Source: an uncultured Trueperaceae bacterium
GTDB lineage: Bacteria > Deinococcota > Deinococci > Deinococcales > Trueperaceae
Length of the DNA stretch: 64,000 nt
Direction of reading: 5' to 3'
Assembly (NCBI GenBank): GCA_963815215.1
Contig: CAWFFU010000009.1
Span: forward strand, 1-64,000
Under the pieces are notes generated by a model, which saw nothing but the letters and a program-made list of their open reading frames with translations, ran no database searches and was not told the DNA's origin. The position numbers and the translations under genes are program-made. Positions 1 through 62,559 of the stretch are shown in pieces (positions within the stretch are counted from its first letter, which is position 1; every line of letters starts with the position of its first letter).

Positions 1-72
1 CCGGGCAGCCGCGCCTGCCCCACGGCCGGATACTTCCTGGTCGCCCTCGCGCGCAGACGGTAGAGTGCGGGT

Positions 73-2235
73 ATGAAGTCGGGAGCGGAGATGGGGGGCG
101 GGGGCCCTTACACCGACCGGGAACCGGACGCCCCGGCTGTTGGGCGGGACGCCCCCGCCGTCGTCCGCGTCAAGCGGAACTTCTACCTGTTCCTGTTGCC
201 GCTGCTGGCGGCCGTGGTGCTGGTCACCGGGATCCTCGGCGCGCCCGGCTCCTTCGATCAGATCGTCCTGCCCGCCGTCAGCGCCGTGATGCTGCTGATG
301 CTGCTGCCGGTGTACGGTCGCTGGCTCCCTCCGCGCTACATCGAGAGGGCGGTCTTCGGTCTCTTCGCGTTGCTGTACCTGAGCAAGCTGGCGATCAGCC
401 TCTCCGAGGCCGAGAACCTCTACCAGATCTTCGTGTGGACGCCGCTGCTCTATGTGCTGGCGTTCCTGATGTTCGATCCAGGACCCGGACTCATCGCCTC
501 TGTCATCGTGCTGGCCGTCTCGTCCGGTGTGGCGGTGACCGGCGCGCTGCTGACGGCGATCCCGGCCCGCAGTCTGTTCGAGTACTACCTCGCGAACGGA
601 CTGCTCGTCTCCATGGTCTACGGGCTCTCGCGCCTGAGGCGCGACGTCGCTTCGCTACAGACCCAGCTCGTGGGCATGCGGCAGCTCGCCCACGAGGACG
701 TCCTTACCGGGTTGCCCAACCGCCGTGCGCTGGAGGCGATCCTCGACAGGGCCATCGCGCTGGCGGAGCGCCGGACCCAGGACGTGGGCGTCCTCCTGTT
801 CGACCTCGATGACTTCAAGCGCGTCAACGACGAGCACGGCCACGATGCCGGCGACCAGGTGCTGCGCGGCGTAGCGCTTCGTGGCGAGAGCGTGCTGCGG
901 CGCCCTGATGTCTTCGGCCGCTGGGGCGGGGAGGAGTTCCTGGTGATCACCCCCGGGATCGACCTGCCCGGCGCCATGCGCGTGGGCGAGCGCCTTCGCG
1001 AGGCCCTCGCCTCCCACCCCTTCGGGGATACCGGGACGGTGACGGCGAGCTTCGGCGTGACGACCTACCACCCCGGCGACACCACCGAGACGCTCCTGAA
1101 GCGCGTCGACGACGCGCTCTACCTGGCCAAGCAGAGCGGCAAGGATCGGGTCGACGCCCTGGCGCGCGAGATGGTGGAGCACGTCGTCCTGCCGGCCCTC
1201 GCCCGACCCTTCCCGCCGGTCGAGCGCGACACCGAAGCGCTGCAGCGCAACACGCTGGCGTGGTTGAAGGCCTTCGAGGTGGCGCCGCCCGAGACGCTCT
1301 ACCGCTGGGTGGCCGCGGTCCAGCCCGGCTGGCTGGCCGGCCACATGCACCACACCGATGACGCCGGCGCTCTTCAGATCGTGTCGGACTGGACCTTCTG
1401 GATGTTCCTGCACGACGACCACTGCGACACCAGCGCCGCCGGGCGCCACCCCCGCTACCTGATCGACCTGCACCAACGCCTGCTCGGCGTGCTCGCCGGC
1501 GACGACCCACAGCCGCGCGACGGCGCACTGGCGGCGTTGCTGGCCGACCTGCGCACGCGCCTGGAGGCGGCCGCCGGCGCGGACGCCGTCCGGCACTTCG
1601 CCGACGCCACCGATCGCTACTTCGCTGCAACCCGCTGGGAGGCCGCCAACCGTGCCAACGGCACCCCGCCCGACCTGGAGACGTACCAGCGCATGCGCCT
1701 GCTGACCAGCGGCCTGCAGGTGCACACCGTCCTGCTGCAAGCGCTGGAAGGCGTACCGACGTCCACCCACCCGCTGGCGAAGGCGCTCTATGCGTCGGCG
1801 GACCTCGCCGTGTGCTGGGCGAACGATATCTACTCGCTCAACAAGGAGGTCCAGGAGGCGGACATGCACAACCTGGTGATGGCCCTGCAATCGACCCACC
1901 ACATGGGCCTCGACGCCGCGTTGGGGCGGGCCGCACGCATGCACGACGAGCAGGTCGCCGATTATCAGCGCTTGCGCTCGTCGGTCGACGCCCAGGACGG
2001 ATCGGAGCGCACGCAGCTGCTGACGATCGCACGGGCGCTGGAGGCGCGCATGGGGGCCAACGTGGCCTGGTCCGAGCGCTGCAGCCGGTACCGCGCCGCG
2101 GTGACGGTGCGGGTGTCCGCCGATACGTCCACAGACCCGTCAACAGACGCATCCACAGACGCATCCAAAGACGCATCCAAAGACGCATCCGCCGACCCCA
2201 AGGCCGCCGCATCAGCCACCGAGAGCGGCGCCTGA
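73..2235 (+). CDS. Membrane diguanylate cyclase (GGEEF) fused to a C-terminal class I terpene synthase domain
   Basis: About 6 hydrophobic N-terminal segments. DVLTGLPNRR, DLDDFKRVNDEHGHDAGD, I-site RRPD and GGEEF (925-939). Then DDHCD (1414-1428), NDIYSLNKE (1822-1848) and WSERCSRY (2068-2091). No internal stop. Confidence 0.9.
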   Translation: MKSGAEMGGGGPYTDREPDAPAVGRDAPAVVRVKRNFYLFLLPLLAAVVLVTGILGAPGSFDQIVLPAVSAVMLLMLLPVYGRWLPPRYIERAVFGLFALLYLSKLAISLSEAENLYQIFVWTPLLYVLAFLMFDPGPGLIASVIVLAVSSGVAVTGALLTAIPARSLFEYYLANGLLVSMVYGLSRLRRDVASLQTQLVGMRQLAHEDVLTGLPNRRALEAILDRAIALAERRTQDVGVLLFDLDDFKRVNDEHGHDAGDQVLRGVALRGESVLRRPDVFGRWGGEEFLVITPGIDLPGAMRVGERLREALASHPFGDTGTVTASFGVTTYHPGDTTETLLKRVDDALYLAKQSGKDRVDALAREMVEHVVLPALARPFPPVERDTEALQRNTLAWLKAFEVAPPETLYRWVAAVQPGWLAGHMHHTDDAGALQIVSDWTFWMFLHDDHCDTSAAGRHPRYLIDLHQRLLGVLAGDDPQPRDGALAALLADLRTRLEAAAGADAVRHFADATDRYFAATRWEAANRANGTPPDLETYQRMRLLTSGLQVHTVLLQALEGVPTSTHPLAKALYASADLAVCWANDIYSLNKEVQEADMHNLVMALQSTHHMGLDAALGRAARMHDEQVADYQRLRSSVDAQDGSERTQLLTIARALEARMGANVAWSERCSRYRAAVTVRVSADTSTDPSTDASTDASKDASKDASADPKAAASATESGA
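2128..2190 (+). repeat. In-frame 12-nt tandem repeat (STDA/SKDA) in the C-terminal tail
   Basis: tccacagacgca / tccaaagacgca units, about 5 copies. Confidence 0.85.
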
Positions 2236-2361
2236 GCCCGCCTGCCGCCTCTGGATCCGGAAGACCGCACGCGGGCCGCCGAGTCGCACCGCCGAATCGC
2301 ACCGCCAGACCGCACCGCCAGACCCGGCTCACGGAACCCAGTCACGGAACCCAGCTCACAA

Positions 2362-2394
2362 GTGAGGGGGGCGCCCATCGGGCGCCCCCCTCAC
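2362..2394. terminator. GC-rich hairpin between convergent genes
   Basis: gtgaggggggcgccc-atc-gggcgcccccctcac, perfect 15-bp stem. Confidence 0.7.
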
Positions 2395-2436
2395 GCTCCC
2401 GCCTCCGGCGGGGAGCCGTCGTGTCGGCGGCGTACG

Positions 2437-3963
2437 CTAGTTCGTCACCTTGAACGCGTAGCGGAAGTGGAACTTGTGGGGGTGATCCTGCCAGGTGAGG
2501 ACGGCCTGCCGGTACAGGAAGGGCTGCTCGTCGACCGCGCTGTAGTCCTTGTTGCGGTAGAACGACGGGTACAGGTCGATGTAGTGCCAGCCCGGCGCCC
2601 AGCTCGCGGTGACGGGGACGACCACGTCGCCGTTGGTGCTGAAGCCGCAGCCGTACCCCAGGTAGACGTTGTCGATCACGACGGCGAAGATGTTGGTGGT
2701 CTGGGTCCAGCCCAGGCCCTTGACATGGATGGTGATCTTGGTCCCGACCGGTCCTTCGGTCGGCTGAAGCGGCAGCCCCACGACGCCGATGTCGAAGTGG
2801 GTGCTGGCGACCACCTTGTCGCCGACCATGGCCTGGAGCCGGTGCTCGCCGCCGAGGGCGTCGGGGTACTGGAACGGGAGGTCGAAGGCCCCGCTGGCGT
2901 CCGTCTTCACCGTCTTCACGGGCACGGTAGCCGCCGAGTAGGCCGACTCCGTCACGCGCGAGCCGCTCATGGTGGAGAAGGCGAGCGCCACGTCGCTGTT
3001 GGCGGGCAGGCCGCGTCCGTGGATCTGGGCGTCCGTGTAGACCCCCGCGGCCTTGGGATCGACCCAGAGCTTCGGCCCACTGCCGCTGGGCTCGGAGCCG
3101 GCGATCGGCGCCTGGCTCTGCTGCTCGATGGGCTTGGGCATCAGCGCCGGGCCGTCGGTCACCGTGAACATGAACTGCGGCTCGGGCAGGTAGCCGTAGG
3201 GCGAGGAGCCCAGAGCCAGGTAGGGCGCGTCGAAGGGCGCATCGCGAAGCTCGACGAGATGCTTGCCCACCCGTCCCGTCGCCGGGATCACGAAGTTGGC
3301 GGTGCCGTGCGTCTCGACGGCGGTGACGAAGCCGGTGATGGCGTTGTCGTAGGTGAGGGCGTACCACGAGATGTTGTTGATGGCGTCGACGCCGGTGATG
3401 CCCACGTGGATGTCGGTGCCCACGGGGCCGCTCTGCGGCGACATGGTGGCGTGCATCTCCACGTAGTAACCGGCCTTGTTGACGTTGTCGCCGTTCTCCT
3501 GGACGTAGATGTCATGGTTTCCGCCGAAGCCCTCGGGAACCGTGAAGGCGGCCGAGAACGCGCCGTCGGAGCCGACCGTGACCGTGGCGAGCGGAACGCT
3601 CCGCTGGTCGAAGGTGCGTCCCAGGAAGTTGCCGGTGTAGTCGCCGTTCTTCATCTCCAGCTTCCACTGGCCGTCGAAGGCGGCCCACACGACGCTGAGG
3701 CTGGCGCCCGGCTCGAAGCCCGAGCCACTCAGCGTCGCCTGCGATCCGACGATGCCCTTGGCGGGGGTCACCTGGATCTCGCCCTTGATCCCGTTGGGGA
3801 AGGTGGCCTGACTGGTGGCCGCGTTGCCCTGCGCCGAGGCGCCGGCGAACAGCATGCCTGCGGCCAGGAACAGCACCGTCCATACGGCGCGGGCGCCCAG
3901 GCGCGGTTCATGGATTCTCGTGTTCACGGTTTCCATCTCCATCTCGTAGATCGTGTCCCTCAT
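2437..3963 (-). CDS. Exported beta-rich protein with repeated PxxGPVGT (IPT/TIG-like) modules; start uncertain
   Basis: Signal peptide (AVWTVLFLAAGMLFAGASA); internal repeats PAKGIVGS, PQSGPVGT, PTEGPVGT. Confidence 0.7.
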   Translation of the reverse strand: MRDTIYEMEMETVNTRIHEPRLGARAVWTVLFLAAGMLFAGASAQGNAATSQATFPNGIKGEIQVTPAKGIVGSQATLSGSGFEPGASLSVVWAAFDGQWKLEMKNGDYTGNFLGRTFDQRSVPLATVTVGSDGAFSAAFTVPEGFGGNHDIYVQENGDNVNKAGYYVEMHATMSPQSGPVGTDIHVGITGVDAINNISWYALTYDNAITGFVTAVETHGTANFVIPATGRVGKHLVELRDAPFDAPYLALGSSPYGYLPEPQFMFTVTDGPALMPKPIEQQSQAPIAGSEPSGSGPKLWVDPKAAGVYTDAQIHGRGLPANSDVALAFSTMSGSRVTESAYSAATVPVKTVKTDASGAFDLPFQYPDALGGEHRLQAMVGDKVVASTHFDIGVVGLPLQPTEGPVGTKITIHVKGLGWTQTTNIFAVVIDNVYLGYGCGFSTNGDVVVPVTASWAPGWHYIDLYPSFYRNKDYSAVDEQPFLYRQAVLTWQDHPHKFHFRYAFKVTN

Positions 3964-4087
3964 ATTCGTACATCCTCATCCAGATTTAGAGCATAGGACG
4001 GGCGCCCTCGCTGCCGCTCGTTGAGCAACATGCCTTGATTCGCGGTAGGGGGCGCCCGGGAGTTACGTGCCTCGGCTCAGCGGAGGG

Positions 4088-4660
4088 CTATCCGAGCATC
4101 CAGTACCACCAGCGGTGCTTCTCGTAGCGCCGCAGCAGGGAGTCGACCCCCCAGATGTGGCCCGCGCCCATCGACGCCAGCGCGAAGAACGCGAAGATGG
4201 CGATGATCTGGACGTCGAACCAGCCGCTGGTCGGCGGCAGGCAGGCGGTGTAGAAGCTGAGCATGATCAGCGTGCCGGCCAGTGCCGCGAGGCGAGTGAG
4301 GAAGCCGCTGACCATGGCGAGGCCGATGGCCCCCGTGCCCAGGATCAGCAGCCAGAGGACGAGCTGATTTCCCCACAACGCCGTGTAGACCTGCCCGATG
4401 GGGCCCTGGACGACCCCGGGCAGCAGGGCGCTGGCGCCGGTCCAACCGTCCCAGCCCCCGCGGAAGAGCTTGTACGCCACCTGCAACATGCTCAGGCCAA
4501 GCGCCATGCGCAGCGCGAAGAGGGCGAACTCGCCGATCGAGAGCTTGGCGCTCTGGCCGAGCTGCTCCTCGGGCCGGTCGAAGCGGGAGCCGCTCCGGTC
4601 GTGAGCGGCCCGCTCCTCGGCAGCGAGGCCGGACATCCGTTGACGATCCGGAGCGGCCAT
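4088..4660 (-). CDS. DoxX / TQO DoxD-like membrane protein
   Basis: LRMALG...GLAMVSGFLTRLAA...GAGHIWGVDSLL; about 4 TM segments. Confidence 0.75.
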   Translation of the reverse strand: MAAPDRQRMSGLAAEERAAHDRSGSRFDRPEEQLGQSAKLSIGEFALFALRMALGLSMLQVAYKLFRGGWDGWTGASALLPGVVQGPIGQVYTALWGNQLVLWLLILGTGAIGLAMVSGFLTRLAALAGTLIMLSFYTACLPPTSGWFDVQIIAIFAFFALASMGAGHIWGVDSLLRRYEKHRWWYWMLG

Positions 4661-4664
4661 CTCG

Positions 4665-5162
4665 TTACCTCTTCTCGACCGTGATCAGGGTCGGGTAGCC
4701 TTCGGCGGTGGGGTAGTCCTGGTTCATGGGCGTCCAGGTCACCGTGTTGCCGGAGCTGTCCGTGACGATGAGCTGGTACTTGAGCACGCCCGTCGGATAC
4801 ACGGGCGGGATGACCCAGCCGGCCGCCCACATCCACACCTTGGGATCACCGCTGTGCGGGTGCTCACCGAGCGCGAGGTCGACGGTCTTGCCGTCTTCGA
4901 GCTTGGCCGTGACCTTCATGCCGAGCTGCTTGGCCTGGTCGGGCGTGACCACTTCGCCGGTCGCGGTGCTGTACACCTTGGCCAGCCATACGACCTGCTC
5001 ACCGGTCTTGAACGTCGAGATCAGCACGCAGCTGGGCCCGGCGGCGTTCTGGCTGCCGCGCACGACCTCGGCCTGCAGGTAGTAGGCCGGACCTGCCGCG
5101 AACGCCGTGCCGACGATCGCTGCGAACGCCAGGGCGGTGACGAGGAACTTGATCTTACGCAT
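4665..5162 (-). CDS. Exported hypothetical protein
   Basis: RBS aggagg at 5173-5178 (minus strand); signal peptide MRKIKFLVTALAFAAIVGTAFA; first gene of a 3-gene minus-strand unit. Confidence 0.75.
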   Translation of the reverse strand: MRKIKFLVTALAFAAIVGTAFAAGPAYYLQAEVVRGSQNAAGPSCVLISTFKTGEQVVWLAKVYSTATGEVVTPDQAKQLGMKVTAKLEDGKTVDLALGEHPHSGDPKVWMWAAGWVIPPVYPTGVLKYQLIVTDSSGNTVTWTPMNQDYPTAEGYPTLITVEKR

Positions 5163-5278
5163 CACTGAATCGCCTCCTAATGAACTGAACGATCCCGCTC
5201 CACGGGAATCATCCCGGTCGATCATCCTCCCTCGGGAAGTTGCGAAGACAGGGACAAACATACCGCCCGGGACGCAAG

Positions 5279-5298
5279 ACACCCCCACGGGGTATACG
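5279..5298. promoter_or_regulatory. Possible CsoR/RcnR-family operator
   Basis: acacccccacggggtatacg: C-tract/G-tract pseudo-palindrome upstream of the 5162 operon. Confidence 0.35.
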
Positions 5299-5661
5299 CT
5301 CTGCATCGGGTCTGTCGCGTTGGGAAGGGGCTTCCTGCAGACGCCTCGTGCGCCCCGGTGGAGCGGCGAGCGCACGCCGTGGTGCGGGAAGGATGGGTGT
5401 GGTTGACGGCCACGGGACGATTGACCCCCTTCAAGGATCCCGAGCGTGGAAGGACCACTTCGATGCTAGCGGACGGCGGGTCCCGCGGAGGGTAGCAAAC
5501 TGCACGAAATCGGTCAGGATTCGTTCATCGACCCCTCATCTTCGGGGGTCTCATCGCCGCATCGCTCGGCTACCTTCGGCTGCCCGCGGCCCGTCCGCGG
5601 TTGCACCGCGGCCGACCCCGCCCGACGTCCCGGCGGGACCCGGCGCCGCCCCGTAAGCGGC

Positions 5662-7911
5662 TCAGTCCGCCTCGTTCAGCGCCAGGAACGCGTCCACCAC
5701 CGCGGGGTCGAAGTGCCCGCCCGTCTCCTTCCGGATGTGGGCGATGGCCTCGTCGTGACTCCATGCCGGCCGGTAGGGACGATCGCTGGTGAGCGCGTCG
5801 TAGACGTCCGCCACCGCGAAGATGCGCGCCGCCAGCGGGATCGCTTCGCCGCTCAGCCCCATCGGATAGCCGGAGCCGTCCCAGCGCTCGTGGTGGGCGG
5901 CCGGGATGGCGAGCGCGGGCTTCAGGAAGTGGATGGGCGCCAGCAGGTCGGCGGCGAAGATGGTGTGCTGGCGCATGCGCGCCCACTCCTCGTCGGTCAG
6001 GGCGCCAGGTTTCTGGAGGATGGCGTCGGGCACCCCCATCTTGCCGATGTCGTGGAGCAGCGCGCCGCGCCGGATGTGGACGAGTTCCTCCTCGGGCCGG
6101 CCCATCGCGCGCGCCAGGCGCAAGCTCAGCTCGGTCACCCGGCGCGAGTGCCCTTCGGTCTCCTTGTCGCGCAAGTCGAGCGCGCGCGACCAGCCCTCGA
6201 TGGTGGCGTCGTAGGCGGCGCGCAGCTCCTGGTTGCTGGCCGCCAGGTCGGCGACAAGCGCCGCGTTGTCGATGAGGATGGCGCCCTGCGTCGCCACCGT
6301 GACCAGGAACTCCAGCCAGTCGGGTCCGACCTCGAGCGGGCTGCGGTGGGCCACCACCAGGCCGCCCCGCAGGCCGCCGCGCGCGTACATGGGCGCGGCT
6401 GCGAGCAACTCGAGGGGCAGCGGGGGCGCACCGGCGTCCGCGCCCAACGCCCCTTCGATCTGCGGCCGCCCCCGGGCCAGGTAGGGCGTCCCGTCCAGGA
6501 TCGCGCGACCCACGACGCTGGCGTCTGCCGACAGGCGCCGGGCCGCGGCCGGGAAGCTCGCCCCACGCGCTTCGAGGAGCTCCAGCTCGGAGCCGTCCGC
6601 CGCAGCGACGTAGGCGGCGGCCACATCGATCCCCAGGCCCTCGCGAGCGGCCTCGAGGAACGTCCCCGCCGCCGACCGCAGGTCGGTGCCGGCGGTGATC
6701 GCCGTATCGATGCGCCGCAGCGTCGTCAGCCGCTGGACCTGCGTATGCAGGTCGCGGTTGAGCACGCGGATGTTCTCCCGCGCCAGCGCCTGTTCGGTGA
6801 CGTCCCGCTTCGCCGCCACGAAGTGCTCGATCGCCCCGCGGGGACCGATGACGGGCGTGATGCTCATCGCCTCGCGATACTCGGAGCCGTCCTTGCGGCG
6901 GTTGATGAGCTCGCCGCTCCACGGCCGCCCCGCCGTCACGGTCTCCCATAGCGATCGGTAGAAGGCGGGGTCCTGCCGTCCCGAGCCCAGCATGCGGGTG
7001 TGCGAAGCCACCAGCTCGTCCTCGCCGTAGCCCGTCAGCCTCAGCGCATGCGGGTTCGCCCATTCGATGAAGCCGTCGGGGTCGGTCACCACGATCCCCA
7101 CCGGGGCGGCCTGCAGGGCGGTGAGCTGCAGCCGCAGGCGCGCCTCGCCCTCCTCCTCCCGGGTGCGATCGATGAGCGTGCCCACCAGGGTGCGCTCCCC
7201 CTCCAGCCTGACCACCTGCTCCAGCGCCTCCACCGGCACCACCGAACCGTCGCGGCGCAGGCCGCGGAACCGGAAGCGCCGGATCTCGTCCCCGGCGTCC
7301 TGCAGGTCCGCGACGTCGTCGGCCACCCAGGCGTGGTCCTCCGGGTGCACCACGTCGGCCGGCACGAGCCGCTCCACCACTTCCTCGGGCGTGAAGTCGA
7401 AGATCGCGGCGAAGGCCGCGTTGACGTAGGTGAAGCGACCCTCGCGGATGGAGTAGGTCCCGGCCAGCACGTTCTCCGCGATCTGTTCCAGGTGCCGCTC
7501 GTTGGCCCGTAACTCGTGCTCCAGCGCCCGGTGGCGCTCGAGCGCGGCCCTGAGCTGACGATCGCGGTTGCGCCAGAGCCCCACGGCGACTCCGAACGCC
7601 ACCGTGACCAGGGCGGTCGGCACGCCCGGTACCGTCAGGCTCGAGAAGGGAGCGGCATGATCGAGCACCGTCGCCGTCAGGGTCGAATGCAGTAGCAGCG
7701 CGACCAGGGCGGAGGCGACGCCGCCCACCAACCCGTAGCACCAGCCGGCCACGGCCACCGGCAGCAGCATGAGCGCCGCCGTGTCCACGGCCAGCGCCGG
7801 CTCCAGGGCGAAGAACGCCACCCCATAGACAACGAAGCCCCCGATGACGGAGGCGACCTCCCCGGCGGTCTGCCGTCCACTACGCGTCACTGACAACCCA
7901 TCCCCTGACAC
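5662..7911 (-). CDS. Membrane PAS-PAS-GAF HD-GYP phosphodiesterase
   Basis: N-terminal TMs; PAS motifs (VHPED, NRRKDGS); ETEGHSRRV, LLHDIGK, HHERWDGSGYP, AVADVYDALTSDRPYR. Confidence 0.92.
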   Translation of the reverse strand: MSGDGLSVTRSGRQTAGEVASVIGGFVVYGVAFFALEPALAVDTAALMLLPVAVAGWCYGLVGGVASALVALLLHSTLTATVLDHAAPFSSLTVPGVPTALVTVAFGVAVGLWRNRDRQLRAALERHRALEHELRANERHLEQIAENVLAGTYSIREGRFTYVNAAFAAIFDFTPEEVVERLVPADVVHPEDHAWVADDVADLQDAGDEIRRFRFRGLRRDGSVVPVEALEQVVRLEGERTLVGTLIDRTREEEGEARLRLQLTALQAAPVGIVVTDPDGFIEWANPHALRLTGYGEDELVASHTRMLGSGRQDPAFYRSLWETVTAGRPWSGELINRRKDGSEYREAMSITPVIGPRGAIEHFVAAKRDVTEQALARENIRVLNRDLHTQVQRLTTLRRIDTAITAGTDLRSAAGTFLEAAREGLGIDVAAAYVAAADGSELELLEARGASFPAAARRLSADASVVGRAILDGTPYLARGRPQIEGALGADAGAPPLPLELLAAAPMYARGGLRGGLVVAHRSPLEVGPDWLEFLVTVATQGAILIDNAALVADLAASNQELRAAYDATIEGWSRALDLRDKETEGHSRRVTELSLRLARAMGRPEEELVHIRRGALLHDIGKMGVPDAILQKPGALTDEEWARMRQHTIFAADLLAPIHFLKPALAIPAAHHERWDGSGYPMGLSGEAIPLAARIFAVADVYDALTSDRPYRPAWSHDEAIAHIRKETGGHFDPAVVDAFLALNEAD

Positions 7912-8052
7912 GCCACCTTGCGATCAGCCTCGCCGACCGGGAAGCACGCAACTCTTACGCCCCCACGCAATGCGTGCTCGCCCGCGCACGTCGGCCTGCC
8001 GACAACCTGGCTGGGCGCCGCATCTATAGAGTAAGCCGAGACGGAGGCTAGC

Positions 8053-9132
8053 ATGCGCTATCGACCCCTCGGCAGGACCGGAACGCTGGTCTCGGAGCTG
8101 TGCCTCGGCACCATGACCTTCGGCGGCCAAGGCATCTGGGAGGCCATCGGCAGCCAGCAGCAGACGGAGGCGACCGCCCTGGTGCGGCGCGCGCTCGAAG
8201 GCGGCGTGAACTTCCTCGACACCGCCAACGTCTATTCCATGGGCGCCAGCGAACGGCTGCTGGGCCAGGCCCTCAAGGACCTGGGGGTGGACCGCAGCCA
8301 GGTGGTGCTGGCCAGCAAGGTGCGCGGGCGCATGGCGCCCGGCGTCAACCAGTCGGGGCTGAGCCGCGCTCACATCGTCGACCAGGTGCACCGCAGCCTG
8401 GAGCGGCTCCAGACCGACCACCTGGACCTCTACCAGATCCACGGTTTCGACCCGCTCACGCCGCTGAAGACCACCCTTCGCGCCCTCAACGACCTGGTGC
8501 GCGAGGGTACGGTGCGCGCCATCGGCGCCAGCAACCTGGCAGCCTGGCAACTCGCACGTGCGTTGTGGATCAGCGACGTGGAGGGGCTCGAGCGCTTCGA
8601 GAGCCTTCAGGCCTACTACACCGTGGCGGGGCGGGGCCTGGAGCGGGAGGTGGCGCCCCTGTTGATCGACCAGGGCCTGGGCCTGATGGTGTGGAGCCCG
8701 CTGGCCGGCGGCCTGCTGTCGGGCAAGTTCGACCGTGCCACCGCCAAGGCCGGCGGCGCCCGGCGCGACAGCTTCGACTTCCCGCCCGTCGACCGTGAGC
8801 GGGCGTGGGACGTCGTGGACGTCATGCGCGACATCGGCGGGGCGCACGGCGTCAGCGTGGCGCAGATCGCACTCGCCTGGTTGCTCCATCAAGATGTCGT
8901 CACCAGCGTCATCATCGGCGCCAGGTCGATGGCCCAGCTCGAGGACAACCTCGCCAGTCCGGACATCGCGCTGTCGGCCGACGAGCTGGCCCGCCTCGAC
9001 GCGGCGAGTGCGCTGCCGCCCGAGTACCCGGGCTGGATGGTCGCGCGGCAAGCGGGCGACCGCGACCTCGCACACCTGTCCGAGAGCGCGCCGCCGGTGC
9101 TGGGGGGCGAGCAAGCGAAGACGTCGTCCTGA
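8053..9132 (+). CDS. Aldo/keto reductase
   Basis: LCLGTMTFG, DTANVYS, DLYQIH, WSPLAGGLL; RBS ggagg. Confidence 0.95.
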   Translation: MRYRPLGRTGTLVSELCLGTMTFGGQGIWEAIGSQQQTEATALVRRALEGGVNFLDTANVYSMGASERLLGQALKDLGVDRSQVVLASKVRGRMAPGVNQSGLSRAHIVDQVHRSLERLQTDHLDLYQIHGFDPLTPLKTTLRALNDLVREGTVRAIGASNLAAWQLARALWISDVEGLERFESLQAYYTVAGRGLEREVAPLLIDQGLGLMVWSPLAGGLLSGKFDRATAKAGGARRDSFDFPPVDRERAWDVVDVMRDIGGAHGVSVAQIALAWLLHQDVVTSVIIGARSMAQLEDNLASPDIALSADELARLDAASALPPEYPGWMVARQAGDRDLAHLSESAPPVLGGEQAKTSS

Positions 9133-9258
9133 GGCCGCGCCCGGACCGCAGCGGCCGCACGGCGGTGCGCGGGTTCGGGCACGAGGCGAGGGGGCACACG
9201 AGGAACAGGCGCGCGAGGAACAGGCGCGAGAAGATCGCGTGTCCGGCCGGCGCGGCGG

Positions 9259-10677
9259 CTAGGGCGTTGCGGTGCCGGGCGTTGCGGCGGGCGCCGCGGT
9301 CGGGTCCGCCGCGGTCGGGTCCGCCGCGGTCGGGTCCGCCGCGGTCGGGTCCGCCGGTGCCTGGTCCGCTGGTGCCTGGTCCGCCGGTGCCGATTCCCCT
9401 CGGGGTCCGGCGTCGGGCGCCCCCTCCCGGACGGAGCCGCCCACCAGGCTCTCGCTGAACGTGCGGATCTCGGGGCGGAACGCCGCGCCCACCGCGACCA
9501 GCAGCTCGAGCGCGCCGGCCCCCGCGAACAGCGCCGTCAGGTCCCACTTCGCGACCGCGCCGGAGAGCGCCTGCGAGACCGGCACCAGCCCCGTGTTGGT
9601 GAGCATCAGGATGCTCATCATGCGGCCGAGCATCGCCTTGGGGGTGCGCGCCTGCACCCAGGTGAACAGCAGGATGGCCGCGTAGCCGTTGCCCACGCCG
9701 AGCACGAGCAGCAGGCCGAAGTCGATCCAGGTGGACCCCAGGAAGCCGAGCGCTCCCACCACCAGCCCGAACGCCGCCAGGAGGCCGATCAGGAGCACGC
9801 GCATCGCGGCGCCGCCGATGCGCGGCAGCGAGCCGGCCAGCACGAAGCCCACGAGGTTGCCCCCGGAGTAGGCGGACATCAGCAGGCCGAACGCCAGCGC
9901 GCCCTGCGGGAGTCGCTGGTCGGCCAGCACCGGGATGCCGACCAGCAGCGGGCCGATCAGCAGCAGGTTGACCGCGGCGAGCAGGAGCACGACGAGGCGC
10001 AACGGCCGGTCCGACCAGAGGTAGCGCACGCCGCTGAGGATCGAAGCCCACATGCCCTGCGCCTCCTCGGCGCCGTCCTCGAGCGAGCGGGCGGCGGAGC
10101 CGATCAGGGCCAGACAGGTCGCGGACACGGCGAAGCTCACCGCATCGATGGCGAACGCCAGGCCGATGCCCGCGAAGGAGCGGGCGTAGGCGCCGATGAC
10201 GATCCCGGCGAGGGTGGGACCCAGGAAGCCGACGAGCTGCCCCAGACCCATCACGACCGAGTTGCCCGCCTGCAGATCGCGTTCCTCGACCAGCGTGGGC
10301 ACGATGCTGTTGGCGGCCGGCACCGCGAAGCCCGCCACCAGGCCGAAGGCCAGCGCGAAGGCGTACAGCATCCAGGTCTGGGCGGCGCCCGCGAACACGA
10401 TGGCGGCCAGGAGCCCGGTCAGCGCGAAGCGCACGACGTCCGACGCGATCATGATGGCGCGCGGCGAGAACCGGTCGGTGATGGCGCCGCCGATCAGCAT
10501 GAACGCAGCGCGGGGCACGCCCTCGAGAGCCAGCACGATGCCCAGCGCGAGGGGGTCGCCGGTGAGCCGCAGCGCCAGCCACGGCATCGCGACCAGCGCG
10601 AACTGGTCGCCCAGCAGCGACGTTCCGGTGCCGACGGCGAGGAGCCGGAAGGCGGGGAGGGCGAGGACGCGCTTCAC
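9259..10677 (-). CDS. MFS transporter (DHA3-like)
   Basis: About 12 TM segments; GGAITDRFSPR motif A; GTSLLGDQF. Confidence 0.9.
   Translation of the reverse strand: MKRVLALPAFRLLAVGTGTSLLGDQFALVAMPWLALRLTGDPLALGIVLALEGVPRAAFMLIGGAITDRFSPRAIMIASDVVRFALTGLLAAIVFAGAAQTWMLYAFALAFGLVAGFAVPAANSIVPTLVEERDLQAGNSVVMGLGQLVGFLGPTLAGIVIGAYARSFAGIGLAFAIDAVSFAVSATCLALIGSAARSLEDGAEEAQGMWASILSGVRYLWSDRPLRLVVLLLAAVNLLLIGPLLVGIPVLADQRLPQGALAFGLLMSAYSGGNLVGFVLAGSLPRIGGAAMRVLLIGLLAAFGLVVGALGFLGSTWIDFGLLLVLGVGNGYAAILLFTWVQARTPKAMLGRMMSILMLTNTGLVPVSQALSGAVAKWDLTALFAGAGALELLVAVGAAFRPEIRTFSESLVGGSVREGAPDAGPRGESAPADQAPADQAPADPTAADPTAADPTAADPTAAPAATPGTATP
9291..9390 (-). repeat. In-frame 15-nt tandem repeat (ADPTA/ADQAP) in the MFS tail
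   Basis: ccgcggtcgggtccg x4 plus ggtgcctggtccg variants. Confidence 0.85.
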
Positions 10678-10854
10678 GGCGCCCGTCCCGTGCGTCCTCC
10701 GGGCGCCCGACGCGTCGTCCCGTCGGCGGCGCGCCGGCCGAGGGGGGCGGCGATGCGCGGAAGGGTGCGTTCGGATTCGTTCGCCGGTGTCCTCACGGGT
10801 CGCCTCCGGGGCCGTCGTCCCCTCCGCGCACCACGGGCGCCGAGGAGCGTCAGA

Positions 10855-10883
10855 AGTATAGGCGCACCCTTACATATTGACAA
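10855..10883 (-). promoter_or_regulatory. Sigma70-type promoter upstream of the MFS gene
   Basis: Minus strand TTGTCA-17 nt-TATACT within an AT-rich patch. Confidence 0.7.
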
Positions 10884-10907
10884 GTATTGCTTTACACTCT
10901 GTCAGTT

Positions 10908-62482: not shown

Positions 62483-62559
62483 GGGCCCTTAGCTCAGTCG
62501 GTCAGAGCAGTCGACTCATAATCGATCGGTCGCTGGTTCAAGTCCAGCAGGGCCCACCA
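62483..62559 (+). tRNA. tRNA-Ile2 (anticodon CAU, lysidine type)
   Basis: GGGCCCT/AGGGCCC acceptor stem, A73, encoded CCA, anticodon loop CTCATAA, GGTTCAAGTCC; resembles ileX-type tRNAs; TGcTAGAAT promoter at 62463-62471. Confidence 0.88.

Follow-up and report, generated by a model that had tools for sequence, protein, structure and literature searches.

Architecture of the fusion gene

The window analysed here, a 64,000-nucleotide stretch of a contig from an uncultured Trueperaceae bacterium, carries at one end a single open reading frame (73..2235, + strand) that starts with ATG, contains no internal stop and encodes 720 amino acids followed by a stop codon. Its GC3 (0.91) matches that of the adjoining real genes. 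The gene encodes a membrane sensor, a GGDEF diguanylate cyclase domain and a class I terpene synthase in one frame; both catalytic domains score above their Pfam cut-offs and full-length homologues exist elsewhere. The first-pass annotation had described an uninterrupted frame combining a transmembrane region, GGEEF and RxxD motifs and the motifs of terpene cyclases, and all of these are present in the translation. Translation may begin at ATG 73 or at the in-frame ATG 91: a database copy of the protein (P0002) is 100% identical but six residues shorter (714 aa), a length that initiation at ATG 91 would give. The sequence TAGAGT is found at 61-66 and GGGAG precedes ATG 91. The N-terminal segment (residues 1-27, 73..153, +) is variable and unconserved, with pLDDT below 50 at residues 1-25 in the AlphaFold2 model of the 720-aa protein (mean pLDDT 81.8, pTM 0.49).

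Six long helices are predicted in this model at residues 28-207. The first five (residues 28-54, 61-82, 87-111, 117-133 and 136-158; 154..546, +) are predicted membrane helices of a polytopic sensor module of the MASE type, and the sixth (residues 165-207; 565..693, +) is a stalk, modelled as one continuous helix that leads from the membrane into the GGDEF domain. Stalk residues 189-209 show no length variation among the 22 homologues. Assignment to a particular MASE family is tentative: the protein of the window gave no match to MASE6 (PF20966) at E <= 1, this profile is matched at E <= 0.01 by three of the 22 homologues, and the homologue P0010 (63% identical) passes the cut-off (29.8 bits vs 27.4, residues 32-183). 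Clusters of MASE2, MASE6, MASE7 and MASE8 came up at 0.87-0.91 in an Atlas feature search and serve as leads only. The membrane module is also present in 52 fetched proteins devoid of a synthase, nearly all of ~340-420 aa.

The GGDEF domain (residues 206-359; 688..1149, +) was identified with PF00990 (144.5 bits vs a cut-off of 23.8, E 3.1e-42) and with the NCBIfam profile TIGR00254 (148.6 bits vs 37.4). Its active-site motif is GGEEF (residues 285-289; 925..939, +), invariant in 22/22 sequences. Many diguanylate cyclases, but not all, carry an inhibitory RxxD site that precedes GG(D/E)EF by five residues, and such a site is found here at exactly this spacing (R276-R-P-D279; 898..909, +), with R276 and D279 invariant in all 22 sequences. 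The same is true of D244, D246, K249, N252, D261 and K353, which we take, by equivalence to PleD, to be the metal- and guanine-binding residues. Foldseek matches to this half of the protein correspond to active cyclases with stalk helices, among them DgcB (PDB 6ttr, a coiled coil plus GGDEF structure, TMt 0.88), PleD and the phytochrome-linked 5llw. These features suggest that the domain is of the active type, producing c-di-GMP from GTP with product inhibition through RxxD.

The N-terminal half thus has several known counterparts. Stand-alone MASE-type membrane GGDEF cyclases (~350-420 aa) present the same membrane module, stalk, GGEEF and RxxD motifs, and the coiled-coil cyclase DgcB of Caulobacter has a comparable stalk and GGDEF domain, but these stand-alone proteins terminate after the GGDEF domain, whereas the protein of the window runs on into a terpene synthase. 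No EAL or HD domain was matched by Pfam in the fusion protein, which is not of the GGDEF-EAL or GGDEF-HD-GYP type. The same genome encodes a 669-aa TM-GGDEF-EAL paralogue (G000:C8:96180-98189, - strand) that shares 32% identity over residues 35-358. This paralogue has the same membrane module and stalk and likewise carries a second catalytic domain straight after the GGDEF domain; it differs in that this second domain is an EAL c-di-GMP phosphodiesterase, belonging to the same pathway, and in having the motif SGDEF.

The C-terminal terpene synthase domain

Residues 372-674 (1186..2094, +) correspond to a class I terpene synthase alpha domain of the sesquiterpene-cyclase type. Pfam detected Terpene_syn_C_2 (PF19086) at residues 439-629 with 135.1 bits (cut-off 23.7), and positions 2-314 of the 345 positions of the NCBIfam selinadiene-synthase profile align to residues 372-680, indicating a complete synthase rather than the metal-binding half alone. 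The closest solved relative is the (+)-T-muurolol synthase of Roseiflexus castenholzii (PDB 9hqd, E 1.6e-47; also 9hqi and 9hqm, among others), which has the same alpha-helical class I fold and aligned motifs, with a domain length, ~305 residues, that agrees with that found here. It is followed among the matches by epi-cubenol, epi-cubebol and avermitilol synthases. Structural comparison of the synthase half with solved cyclases by Foldseek gave TMt values of 0.86-0.90 at 32-33% identity over ~302-308 columns; the rmsd ranged from 2.1 to 3.5 A, and nine of the ten top-ranking chains fell within 2.1-2.3 A. The 1-epi-cubenol, 10-epi-cubebol, avermitilol and selinadiene synthases are related bacterial sesquiterpene cyclases of the same fold class. 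T-muurolol synthase and its kin are soluble, single-domain proteins of ~310-365 aa, whereas the corresponding domain here makes up the last third of a membrane protein of 720 aa.

Class I terpene synthases are characterized by a DDxxD motif, an NSE/DTE triad, a pyrophosphate-sensor arginine and a C-terminal RY pair. All four elements could be located. The DDxxD metal-binding motif (D448-D-H-C-D452; 1414..1428, +) aligns to DDQCD of T-muurolol synthase, with D448, D449, C451 and D452 invariant in 22/22 sequences; the NSE triad (N584-D-I-Y-S588-L-N-K-E592; 1822..1848, +) is invariant in all 22 at N584, D585, S588, K591 and E592; and the RY pair (R672-Y673, in WSERCSRY; 2086..2091, +) is equally invariant. 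The putative pyrophosphate sensor, R542 in YQRMRLLTSG (1696..1698, +), aligns to the corresponding Arg of T-muurolol synthase; this role is one that we assume from the terpene synthase literature. R542 is invariant in a 16-sequence alignment and is conserved in at least 90% of the 22 homologues, being the one exception among the catalytic residues of both domains, which are otherwise invariant over 22 sequences with 36-84% identity to the protein of the window. Conserved metal- and diphosphate-binding motifs are equally expected in a pure ligand-binding domain. Conservation in the homologues extends beyond these motifs to aromatic and pocket positions, among them W440, W522, Y538, C581 and W582.

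The synthase half most likely converts farnesyl diphosphate (FPP) into one conserved sesquiterpene, probably cadinane- or muurolane-like. This product class is a guess from the nearest relatives (33% identity), since no NCBIfam equivalog cut-off was reached, whether for selina-4(15),7(11)-diene synthase, the highest-scoring (111.4 bits vs 450), for 4-epi-cubebol synthase, the next (106.7 bits vs 500), or for isoafricanol, delta-cadinene and other synthases; the protein is accordingly not assigned to a named product family. Two polyprenyl diphosphate synthases encoded in the genome could supply the substrate, and the fusion gene harbours the only PF19086 domain of its genome. The domain is followed by a disordered, low-complexity acidic tail (residues 675-720; 2095..2232, +; pLDDT below 50 throughout), part of which is encoded by a 12-base tandem repeat in 5.2 copies (2128-2190). 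This tail is kept only as far as the closest homologue.

The covalent association of a class I cyclase with another catalytic domain has precedents. Bacterial geosmin synthase has two alpha domains. In fungal prenyltransferase-cyclase chimeras (PMC11474042), a class I cyclase is joined to a prenyltransferase. In these cases the partner works within the terpene pathway, providing substrate or a second cyclisation, whereas the partner here is a second-messenger synthase equipped with a membrane sensor.

Distribution, origin and integrity of the fusion

The fused architecture is present in 21 of the 364 genomes of the phylum, distributed over two families and detected down to ~38% identity, a patchy distribution as for an accessory function. 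Among these carriers, 19 have uninterrupted full-length frames, with several genomes closed or nearly closed, in one the gene is divided between two contig ends, and another shows a frame change near residue 600. One carrier, Deinococcus metalli, is cultured; its protein (WP_184109956.1) is annotated only as "diguanylate cyclase". PF19086 exceeds its cut-off in 22 of the 364 genomes and is fused to TM-GGDEF in 21 of them; the single synthase that stands alone belongs to a different and distant type, so that no reversion to separate genes was seen. Both domains are carried by all 22 aligned homologues, and a search with the synthase half alone recovered 14 long proteins, all of them GGDEF-synthase fusions. 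The homologues are thus fusions as well, rather than pairs of genes.

Both halves are under purifying selection, as estimated from five pairwise comparisons (dN/dS of 0.22-0.32 for the GGDEF half and 0.18-0.46 for the synthase half). In the synthase tree, a branch with support 90/65 sets apart the 25 fused proteins, as does a branch in the TM-GGDEF tree (SH-aLRT 97). Both trees are compatible with a single fusion event. The nearest relatives outside the fused clade are stand-alone proteins for each half (TM-GGDEF proteins of ~350-420 aa and synthases of ~290-355 aa), which bears out the first-pass statement that the two enzymes are normally separate. Among the best 150 of 500,828 matches in a representative search (down to ~173 bits), six fused representatives were followed by single-domain proteins only. 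A related-loci search of genome contigs retained 80 loci, all with matches to residues 12-406 only, in which the GGDEF pattern was dominant. We could not find the combination of GGDEF and terpene synthase domains described in the literature, as judged from titles and abstract openings, in line with the earlier remark that no characterised fusion was known; it is apparently undescribed.

The two halves are connected by a short junction (residues 363-371; 1159..1185, +; pLDDT below 50 at residues 364-370) that contains an in-frame ATG at 1171 (M367). Misassembly or a frameshift at the junction could in principle mimic a fusion, as could a separate synthase initiated at this ATG, and the position of the gene at a contig end overlapping another contig is of the kind that would raise this concern. 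Contigs C1 and C9 each encode the identical protein, giving the appearance of a second copy; C1:31752-42629 equals C9:1-10894 at 99.74% identity (blastn), a contig-end overlap, and the two were therefore counted as one gene. Against an artefact, these overlapping contigs agree in the protein they encode, contigs from two studies cross the junction with 0 differences (X1 over 661-1568 and X3 over 1078-1280), and the same single frame recurs in 19 other genomes. The fusion ORF is real DNA without misjoin; the interval 1140-1200, which had been singled out as the place to look for a stop or a misjoin, contains neither in the bridging contigs. The free synthase once suggested from ATG 1171 fares no better, as M367 is kept in only five of 22 homologues, the preceding bases (GCGCGAG) are not a good ribosome-binding site and no promoter-like site was found on the + strand within the gene. 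We consider an artefact or a two-product gene largely refuted and very improbable. None of the 20 runs listed for the gene is an RNA run.

The length of the junction is nearly fixed. Counted from R359 to P374 it is 16 residues in 21 of the 22 homologues, at identities down to 36%, with a single exception of 15 residues, and R359, V360, P374 and L376 are invariant among the aligned homologues (n=22). This conservation bears on whether the protein could be simply two independent active enzymes on one chain, the fusion ensuring their equal expression and placing the cyclase at the membrane for the exit of a hydrophobic product. The low confidence of the model at the junction and C-terminal tail only, together with the pTM of 0.49, would fit such beads on a string, the close stand-alone relatives of both halves work alone, and no conserved partner genes accompany the fusion. 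A mere tether could vary, yet this one is constant in length with invariant flanking residues, and fusion in 21 of the 22 genomes with PF19086 again sits poorly with independence. We regard two uncoupled enzymes as a somewhat improbable explanation. The geometry between the domains has no confident prediction, because pTM is 0.49 and pLDDT falls below 50 at the junction.

Genomic context and possible coupling of the two activities

No gene is conserved beside the fusion across genera, and synteny is observed only inside the genus, leaving the fusion without a pathway context. A gene encoding a PAS-PAS-GAF-HD-GYP protein lies at 5662-7911; of the loci compared, only that of the close relative G003 has it near the fusion, while G002 has other genes at this place and the G008 and G007 loci end short of the corresponding distance. 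In G019, an unrelated PAS-GAF-GGDEF-EAL gene adjoins the fusion, and in G012 the fusion is found by sugar ABC transporter genes. No prenyl synthase, P450 or methyltransferase gene was found near the fusion at the compared loci. A fixed cyclase-phosphodiesterase pair and a terpene gene cluster were considered and rejected on these grounds. Searching the window and 15 kb of upstream contig with Rfam for riboswitches and other RNAs yielded only a tRNA (62483-62556).

The lack of tailoring or export genes alongside would suit a synthase domain acting mainly as a sensor, which would bind FPP or GGPP with Mg2+ and report the supply of isoprenoid or lipid precursors to the diguanylate cyclase, turnover being slow or incidental. 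The conserved DDxxD, NSE, Arg and RY elements are all ligand-binding elements, and the synthase occupies the position held by the EAL domain in the paralogue of the same genome. Against this, sensor domains of GGDEF proteins are usually N-terminal to the GGDEF domain and the protein already has an N-terminal membrane sensor; the conservation also reaches the aromatic and pocket positions listed above, and the domain is folded like cyclases known to work. We regard a mainly sensory synthase as unlikely.

Conversely, the terpene may be the main output and the GGDEF domain chiefly a regulator, with c-di-GMP, produced locally or by other cyclases of the cell, locking the dimer when bound at RxxD and switching terpene synthesis on or off. 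The invariance of RxxD would fit, the genome contains many other GGDEF genes (22 matches) as sources of c-di-GMP, and HD-GYP or GGDEF-EAL genes are close by in two lineages. Degenerate receptor GGDEF domains do exist. A mere receptor need not keep the catalytic GGEEF motif and the substrate-binding residues, yet both are invariant here, and this possibility appears to us the least probable of those in which the fusion is functional.

The reading that we favour, while placing it a little short of an even chance, is that of a single enzyme, anchored in the membrane and probably a dimer, which would have two catalytic outputs and mechanically coupled domains. The coupling is proposed because the junction is short and constant in length and has been retained since one ancient fusion event. 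The six-helix MASE-type module would sense a membrane or envelope cue, which would travel down the fixed-length stalk helix to the GGDEF domain; this domain would convert GTP to c-di-GMP and be product-inhibited through RxxD, and the terpene cyclase would act on FPP at the inner face of the membrane. The geometry of the GGDEF-GGDEF dimer may depend on the state of the synthase, either open or closed over substrate and Mg, in such a way that a single membrane signal would govern an intracellular messenger together with a terpene that is hydrophobic or volatile.

A more specific proposal, possible but on the doubtful side, is that messenger synthesis and terpene cyclisation gate each other via a rigid junction, in either direction: c-di-GMP bound at RxxD, or the pairing of GGDEF domains, would control terpene formation, or closure of the synthase over FPP would control c-di-GMP synthesis. 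If such mutual gating were true, a cue would be sent out simultaneously in two forms, an intracellular messenger and a sesquiterpene signal, the latter diffusible or volatile, and the protein would be the first direct physical link from c-di-GMP signalling to terpenoid metabolism.

Most work on bacterial terpene synthases treats them as soluble biosynthetic enzymes that stand alone, and to our knowledge the role and regulation of most bacterial terpenes are largely unknown. GGDEF cyclases, as far as we know, normally have sensors or c-di-GMP-degrading domains as fusion partners and not enzymes of other metabolisms. In a few bacteria related to Deinococcus, the fusion physically ties a c-di-GMP signalling enzyme to a terpene-making one. 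Searches of genomes by product name will have overlooked this synthase, since the public name is "diguanylate cyclase" only. The fusion offers a one-protein system for asking whether terpene synthesis can be allosterically switched, and the cultured and harmless carrier D. metalli makes genetics and headspace chemistry feasible. Its conservation hints that, in these bacteria, the sesquiterpene may belong to a behaviour controlled by c-di-GMP, for example life on surfaces, responses to stress or signalling between cells.

The fusion gene and its distribution

The gene at 73-2235 (+) is a single open frame with an ATG start, encoding 720 amino acids, and its third-position GC content (0.91) is that of the adjacent genes. 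Two Pfam domains lie well above cut-off in this one frame, GGDEF (residues 206-359; 144.5 bits versus 23.8) and Terpene_syn_C_2 (residues 439-629; 135.1 bits versus 23.7), which confirms the diguanylate cyclase/terpene synthase fusion claimed by the first-pass annotation. The synthase half is complete, because residues 372-680 align with positions 2-314 of the 345 in the NCBIfam selinadiene-synthase profile. All motifs claimed there could be read from the translation: RRPD (276-279), GGEEF (285-289), DDHCD (448-452), R542 within YQRMRLLTSG, NDIYSLNKE (584-592) and R672-Y673 within WSERCSRY.

The fusion is not an artefact, and the strongest support for this is comparative, i.e., the fused homologues in other genomes. 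The PF19086 domain scores above cut-off in 22 of 364 genomes of the phylum, and in 21 of these it sits in a TM-GGDEF-synthase frame, so that the homologues are not two separate genes. The frame is full-length and uninterrupted in 19 of the 21, the window's genome included; it is divided between two contig ends in G045 and shows a frame change near residue 600 in G103, an assembly of 290 contigs. The only PF19086-positive genome lacking the fusion, G329, encodes a distant stand-alone synthase (315-aa frame, 23% identity). The architecture is conserved across two families and seven genera; in the window's genus it is present in 5 of 10 genomes (window's included), some of the five non-carriers being only 70-89% complete. 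A word-indexed protein search retrieved 18 clusters (P0002-P0019) with both Pfam domains at 39-100% identity. An exhaustive search covered 1.84 billion representatives at 50% identity; among the best 150 of its 500,828 matches, six fused representatives, full-length or truncated, scored 361-953 bits, below which no score exceeds 222 bits. Of the long matches listed further down, not one contains both domains according to local profiles of each module, which detected both in 23 of 272 fetched proteins. With the synthase half as query, all 14 long proteins returned were GGDEF-synthase fusions, and the only close match among short proteins (P0122, 83%) is a fragment on a 1216-base contig in which the end of the GGDEF domain is still present. 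True stand-alone synthases share at most 37% identity.

The reads point the same way. Over 1140-1200, where a check of the reads had been proposed, short-read contigs from two public sequencing runs bridge the domain junction with 0 differences: one from X1 (record 2) spans 661-1568 and one from X3 (record 18; other study) spans 1078-1280. Since the assembly may derive from the X1 sample, X3 is taken as the independent witness. Contigs of both runs lack 13 bases at 2329, in the spacer after the stop codon, which is filled by three overlapping 13-base repeat arrays (2276-2359); array copy number thus differs among samples. Inside the gene, a tandemly repeated 12-base unit, present in 5.2 copies (2128-2190), codes for the protein's acidic Ser/Thr/Asp/Ala/Lys tail.

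Two identical gene copies, on contigs C1 and C9 of the window's genome, were rejected as a contig-end overlap and counted as one gene: the last 10.9 kb of C1 (31752-42629) correspond to the first 10.9 kb of C9 (window 1-10894) with 99.74% identity. The overlap looks unresolved and would link C1 to C9; because of it, genes within 1-10894 are counted twice in genome searches.

Public databases already list the fusion proteins, naming them "diguanylate cyclase", as in the cultured carrier Deinococcus metalli (P0129, WP_184109956.1). In the accessible parts of the literature that connects terpene synthases or cyclases with c-di-GMP and diguanylate cyclases (GGDEF) or with Deinococcus, we did not find a description of the fusion, a mention in a genome-mining table being possible; PMC11450739 is unrelated to it. 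The novelty lies in the combination, each domain being an ordinary member of a known family.

Conservation, junction and predicted structure

Residue conservation was taken from an alignment of 22 sequences that share 36-84% identity with the window's protein. In the cyclase, D244, D246, K249, N252, D261, R276, D279, the whole RWGGEEF and K353 are invariant. In the synthase, the invariant binding and motif residues include D448, D449, C451, D452, N584, D585, S588, K591, E592, R672 and Y673, accompanied by W440, W522, Y538, G547, C581 and W582; R542 shows no variation in the first 16 sequences, and at least 90% of all 22 keep it. Following the literature on PleD and bacterial terpene synthases, we take the conserved residues to have metal, nucleotide or diphosphate binding roles. 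Nei-Gojobori dN/dS values against five orthologues ranged from 0.22 to 0.32 in the GGDEF part, from 0.18 to 0.46 in the synthase part and from 0.34 to 0.72 in the membrane part, and are too high if anything, as dS is probably underestimated at a GC3 near 0.9. A GGDEF domain serving as a c-di-GMP-responsive switch that controls the synthase appears improbable, and a synthase acting on the cyclase as a prenyl-diphosphate sensor rather unlikely.

The AlphaFold2 model, built from 22 homologues, has a mean pLDDT of 81.8 and a pTM of 0.49, at which the arrangement of the domains is not to be trusted. Residues 28-207 are modelled as six long helices, the sixth forming a stalk that leads into the GGDEF domain, followed by a seven-residue low-confidence junction (364-370), an entirely helical synthase domain (372-674) and a disordered tail (675-720). 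The stalk segment 189-209 has equal length in all 22 homologues, and the distance from the invariant R359 at the GGDEF end to the invariant P374 at the synthase start is 16 residues in 21 of them and 15 in one. Beside this constant spacing, two uncoupled activities on one chain seem a somewhat unlikely arrangement.

The suggestion that an ATG at 1171 might yield a free synthase fared less well. The corresponding M367 occurs in only 5 of 22 homologues, Tyr being the commonest residue at that position, no good ribosome-binding site was found in the bases preceding the ATG, and a simple scan of the + strand detected no promoter-like site inside the gene; a conserved free synthase starting there is therefore unlikely, judging from these sequence features. 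As an account of the locus, an artefact or an internal start has very little probability.

Relatives of the two halves

Among solved proteins, the one closest to the synthase half in sequence is (+)-T-muurolol synthase (9hqd, E 1.6e-47); the 10-epi-cubebol, avermitilol and selinadiene synthases rank behind it. The motifs of the synthase half match the crystallised T-muurolol synthase residue by residue in the alignment, and the model superposes on the Roseiflexus castenholzii enzyme with TMt 0.86-0.90 and 32-33% identity. The rmsd is 2.1-3.5 A, nine of the ten best chains lying at 2.1-2.3 A; 1-epi-cubenol synthase is the next best structural match. As every one of these nearest relatives cyclises farnesyl diphosphate, most of them being of the cadinane type, our guess is that the product may be a sesquiterpene; the synthase stays below every NCBIfam equivalog cut-off, and so no product can be named. 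The window's genome encodes two polyprenyl diphosphate synthases and no PF19086 domain besides the fusion gene.

In a synthase-domain tree of 25 fused and 10 stand-alone sequences, which omits P0002 (identical), P0008, P0012, P0013 and P0122 (truncated or of doubtful start) and P0127 (short), the fused sequences all fall on one side of a branch (support 90/65; 91% of bootstrap trees). They also do so (SH-aLRT 97) when the tree is built on the membrane-plus-GGDEF part, with 25 fused sequences and 28 stand-alone relatives selected at a membrane-module E-value below 1e-14. Both trees are unrooted, and both halves fit a single fusion event. As a protein of its own, about 350-420 aa long, the membrane-plus-GGDEF part forms a common family. 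A paralogue in the window's genome (L107, C8 96180-98189 (-), 669 aa; 32% identity over residues 35-358) combines the same membrane module with an SGDEF-type GGDEF domain and then EAL, so that the synthase occupies the place of the paralogue's c-di-GMP phosphodiesterase domain. Frames of about 660-685 aa resembling L107 and matching query residues 4-364 or so are found in many relatives.

Genomic context and proposed function

The fusion gene is flanked by opposite-strand genes. The one upstream is for a melibiase-like hydrolase and the one downstream (2437-3963 (-)) for a protein of 508 aa with only a weak TIG-domain match; no prenyl synthase, P450 or methyltransferase gene was found near it. 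Two genes without Pfam matches follow, encoding 190 aa (4088-4660 (-)) and 236 aa (4665-5375 (-)). This co-directional trio (2437-5375) is kept in the close relative G003, where the 508-aa gene has an adjoining, diverged second copy. Located 3.4 kb downstream of the fusion gene, 5662-7911 (-) has a product of 749 aa in which N-terminal membrane helices are combined with two PAS domains, GAF and an HD-GYP-type domain (HD_5), likely a c-di-GMP phosphodiesterase; outside the window's genome it was seen near the fusion only in G003, and neighbours in other genera differ. At locus L013 of another genus (G019, contig C9, about 6645-8897 (+)), a PAS-GAF-GGDEF-EAL gene is convergent with the fusion gene, their ends eight bases apart. 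Despite about 20 GGDEF matches, PilZ (PF07238) was not detected in the window's genome (97% complete), nor in the controls Deinococcus radiodurans and Thermus thermophilus, so c-di-GMP receptors here must be of other kinds.

We tentatively favour, at a little under even chances, a dimeric membrane receptor-enzyme in which one cue sets both c-di-GMP synthesis and sesquiterpene formation. The MASE-type module would govern the pairing of two GGDEF domains via the stalk, in the manner of other cyclases with stalks, and the fixed-length junction would hold the synthase domains, which may take part in the dimer geometry. A single cue could thereby lead to c-di-GMP synthesis and to a sesquiterpene made at the membrane.
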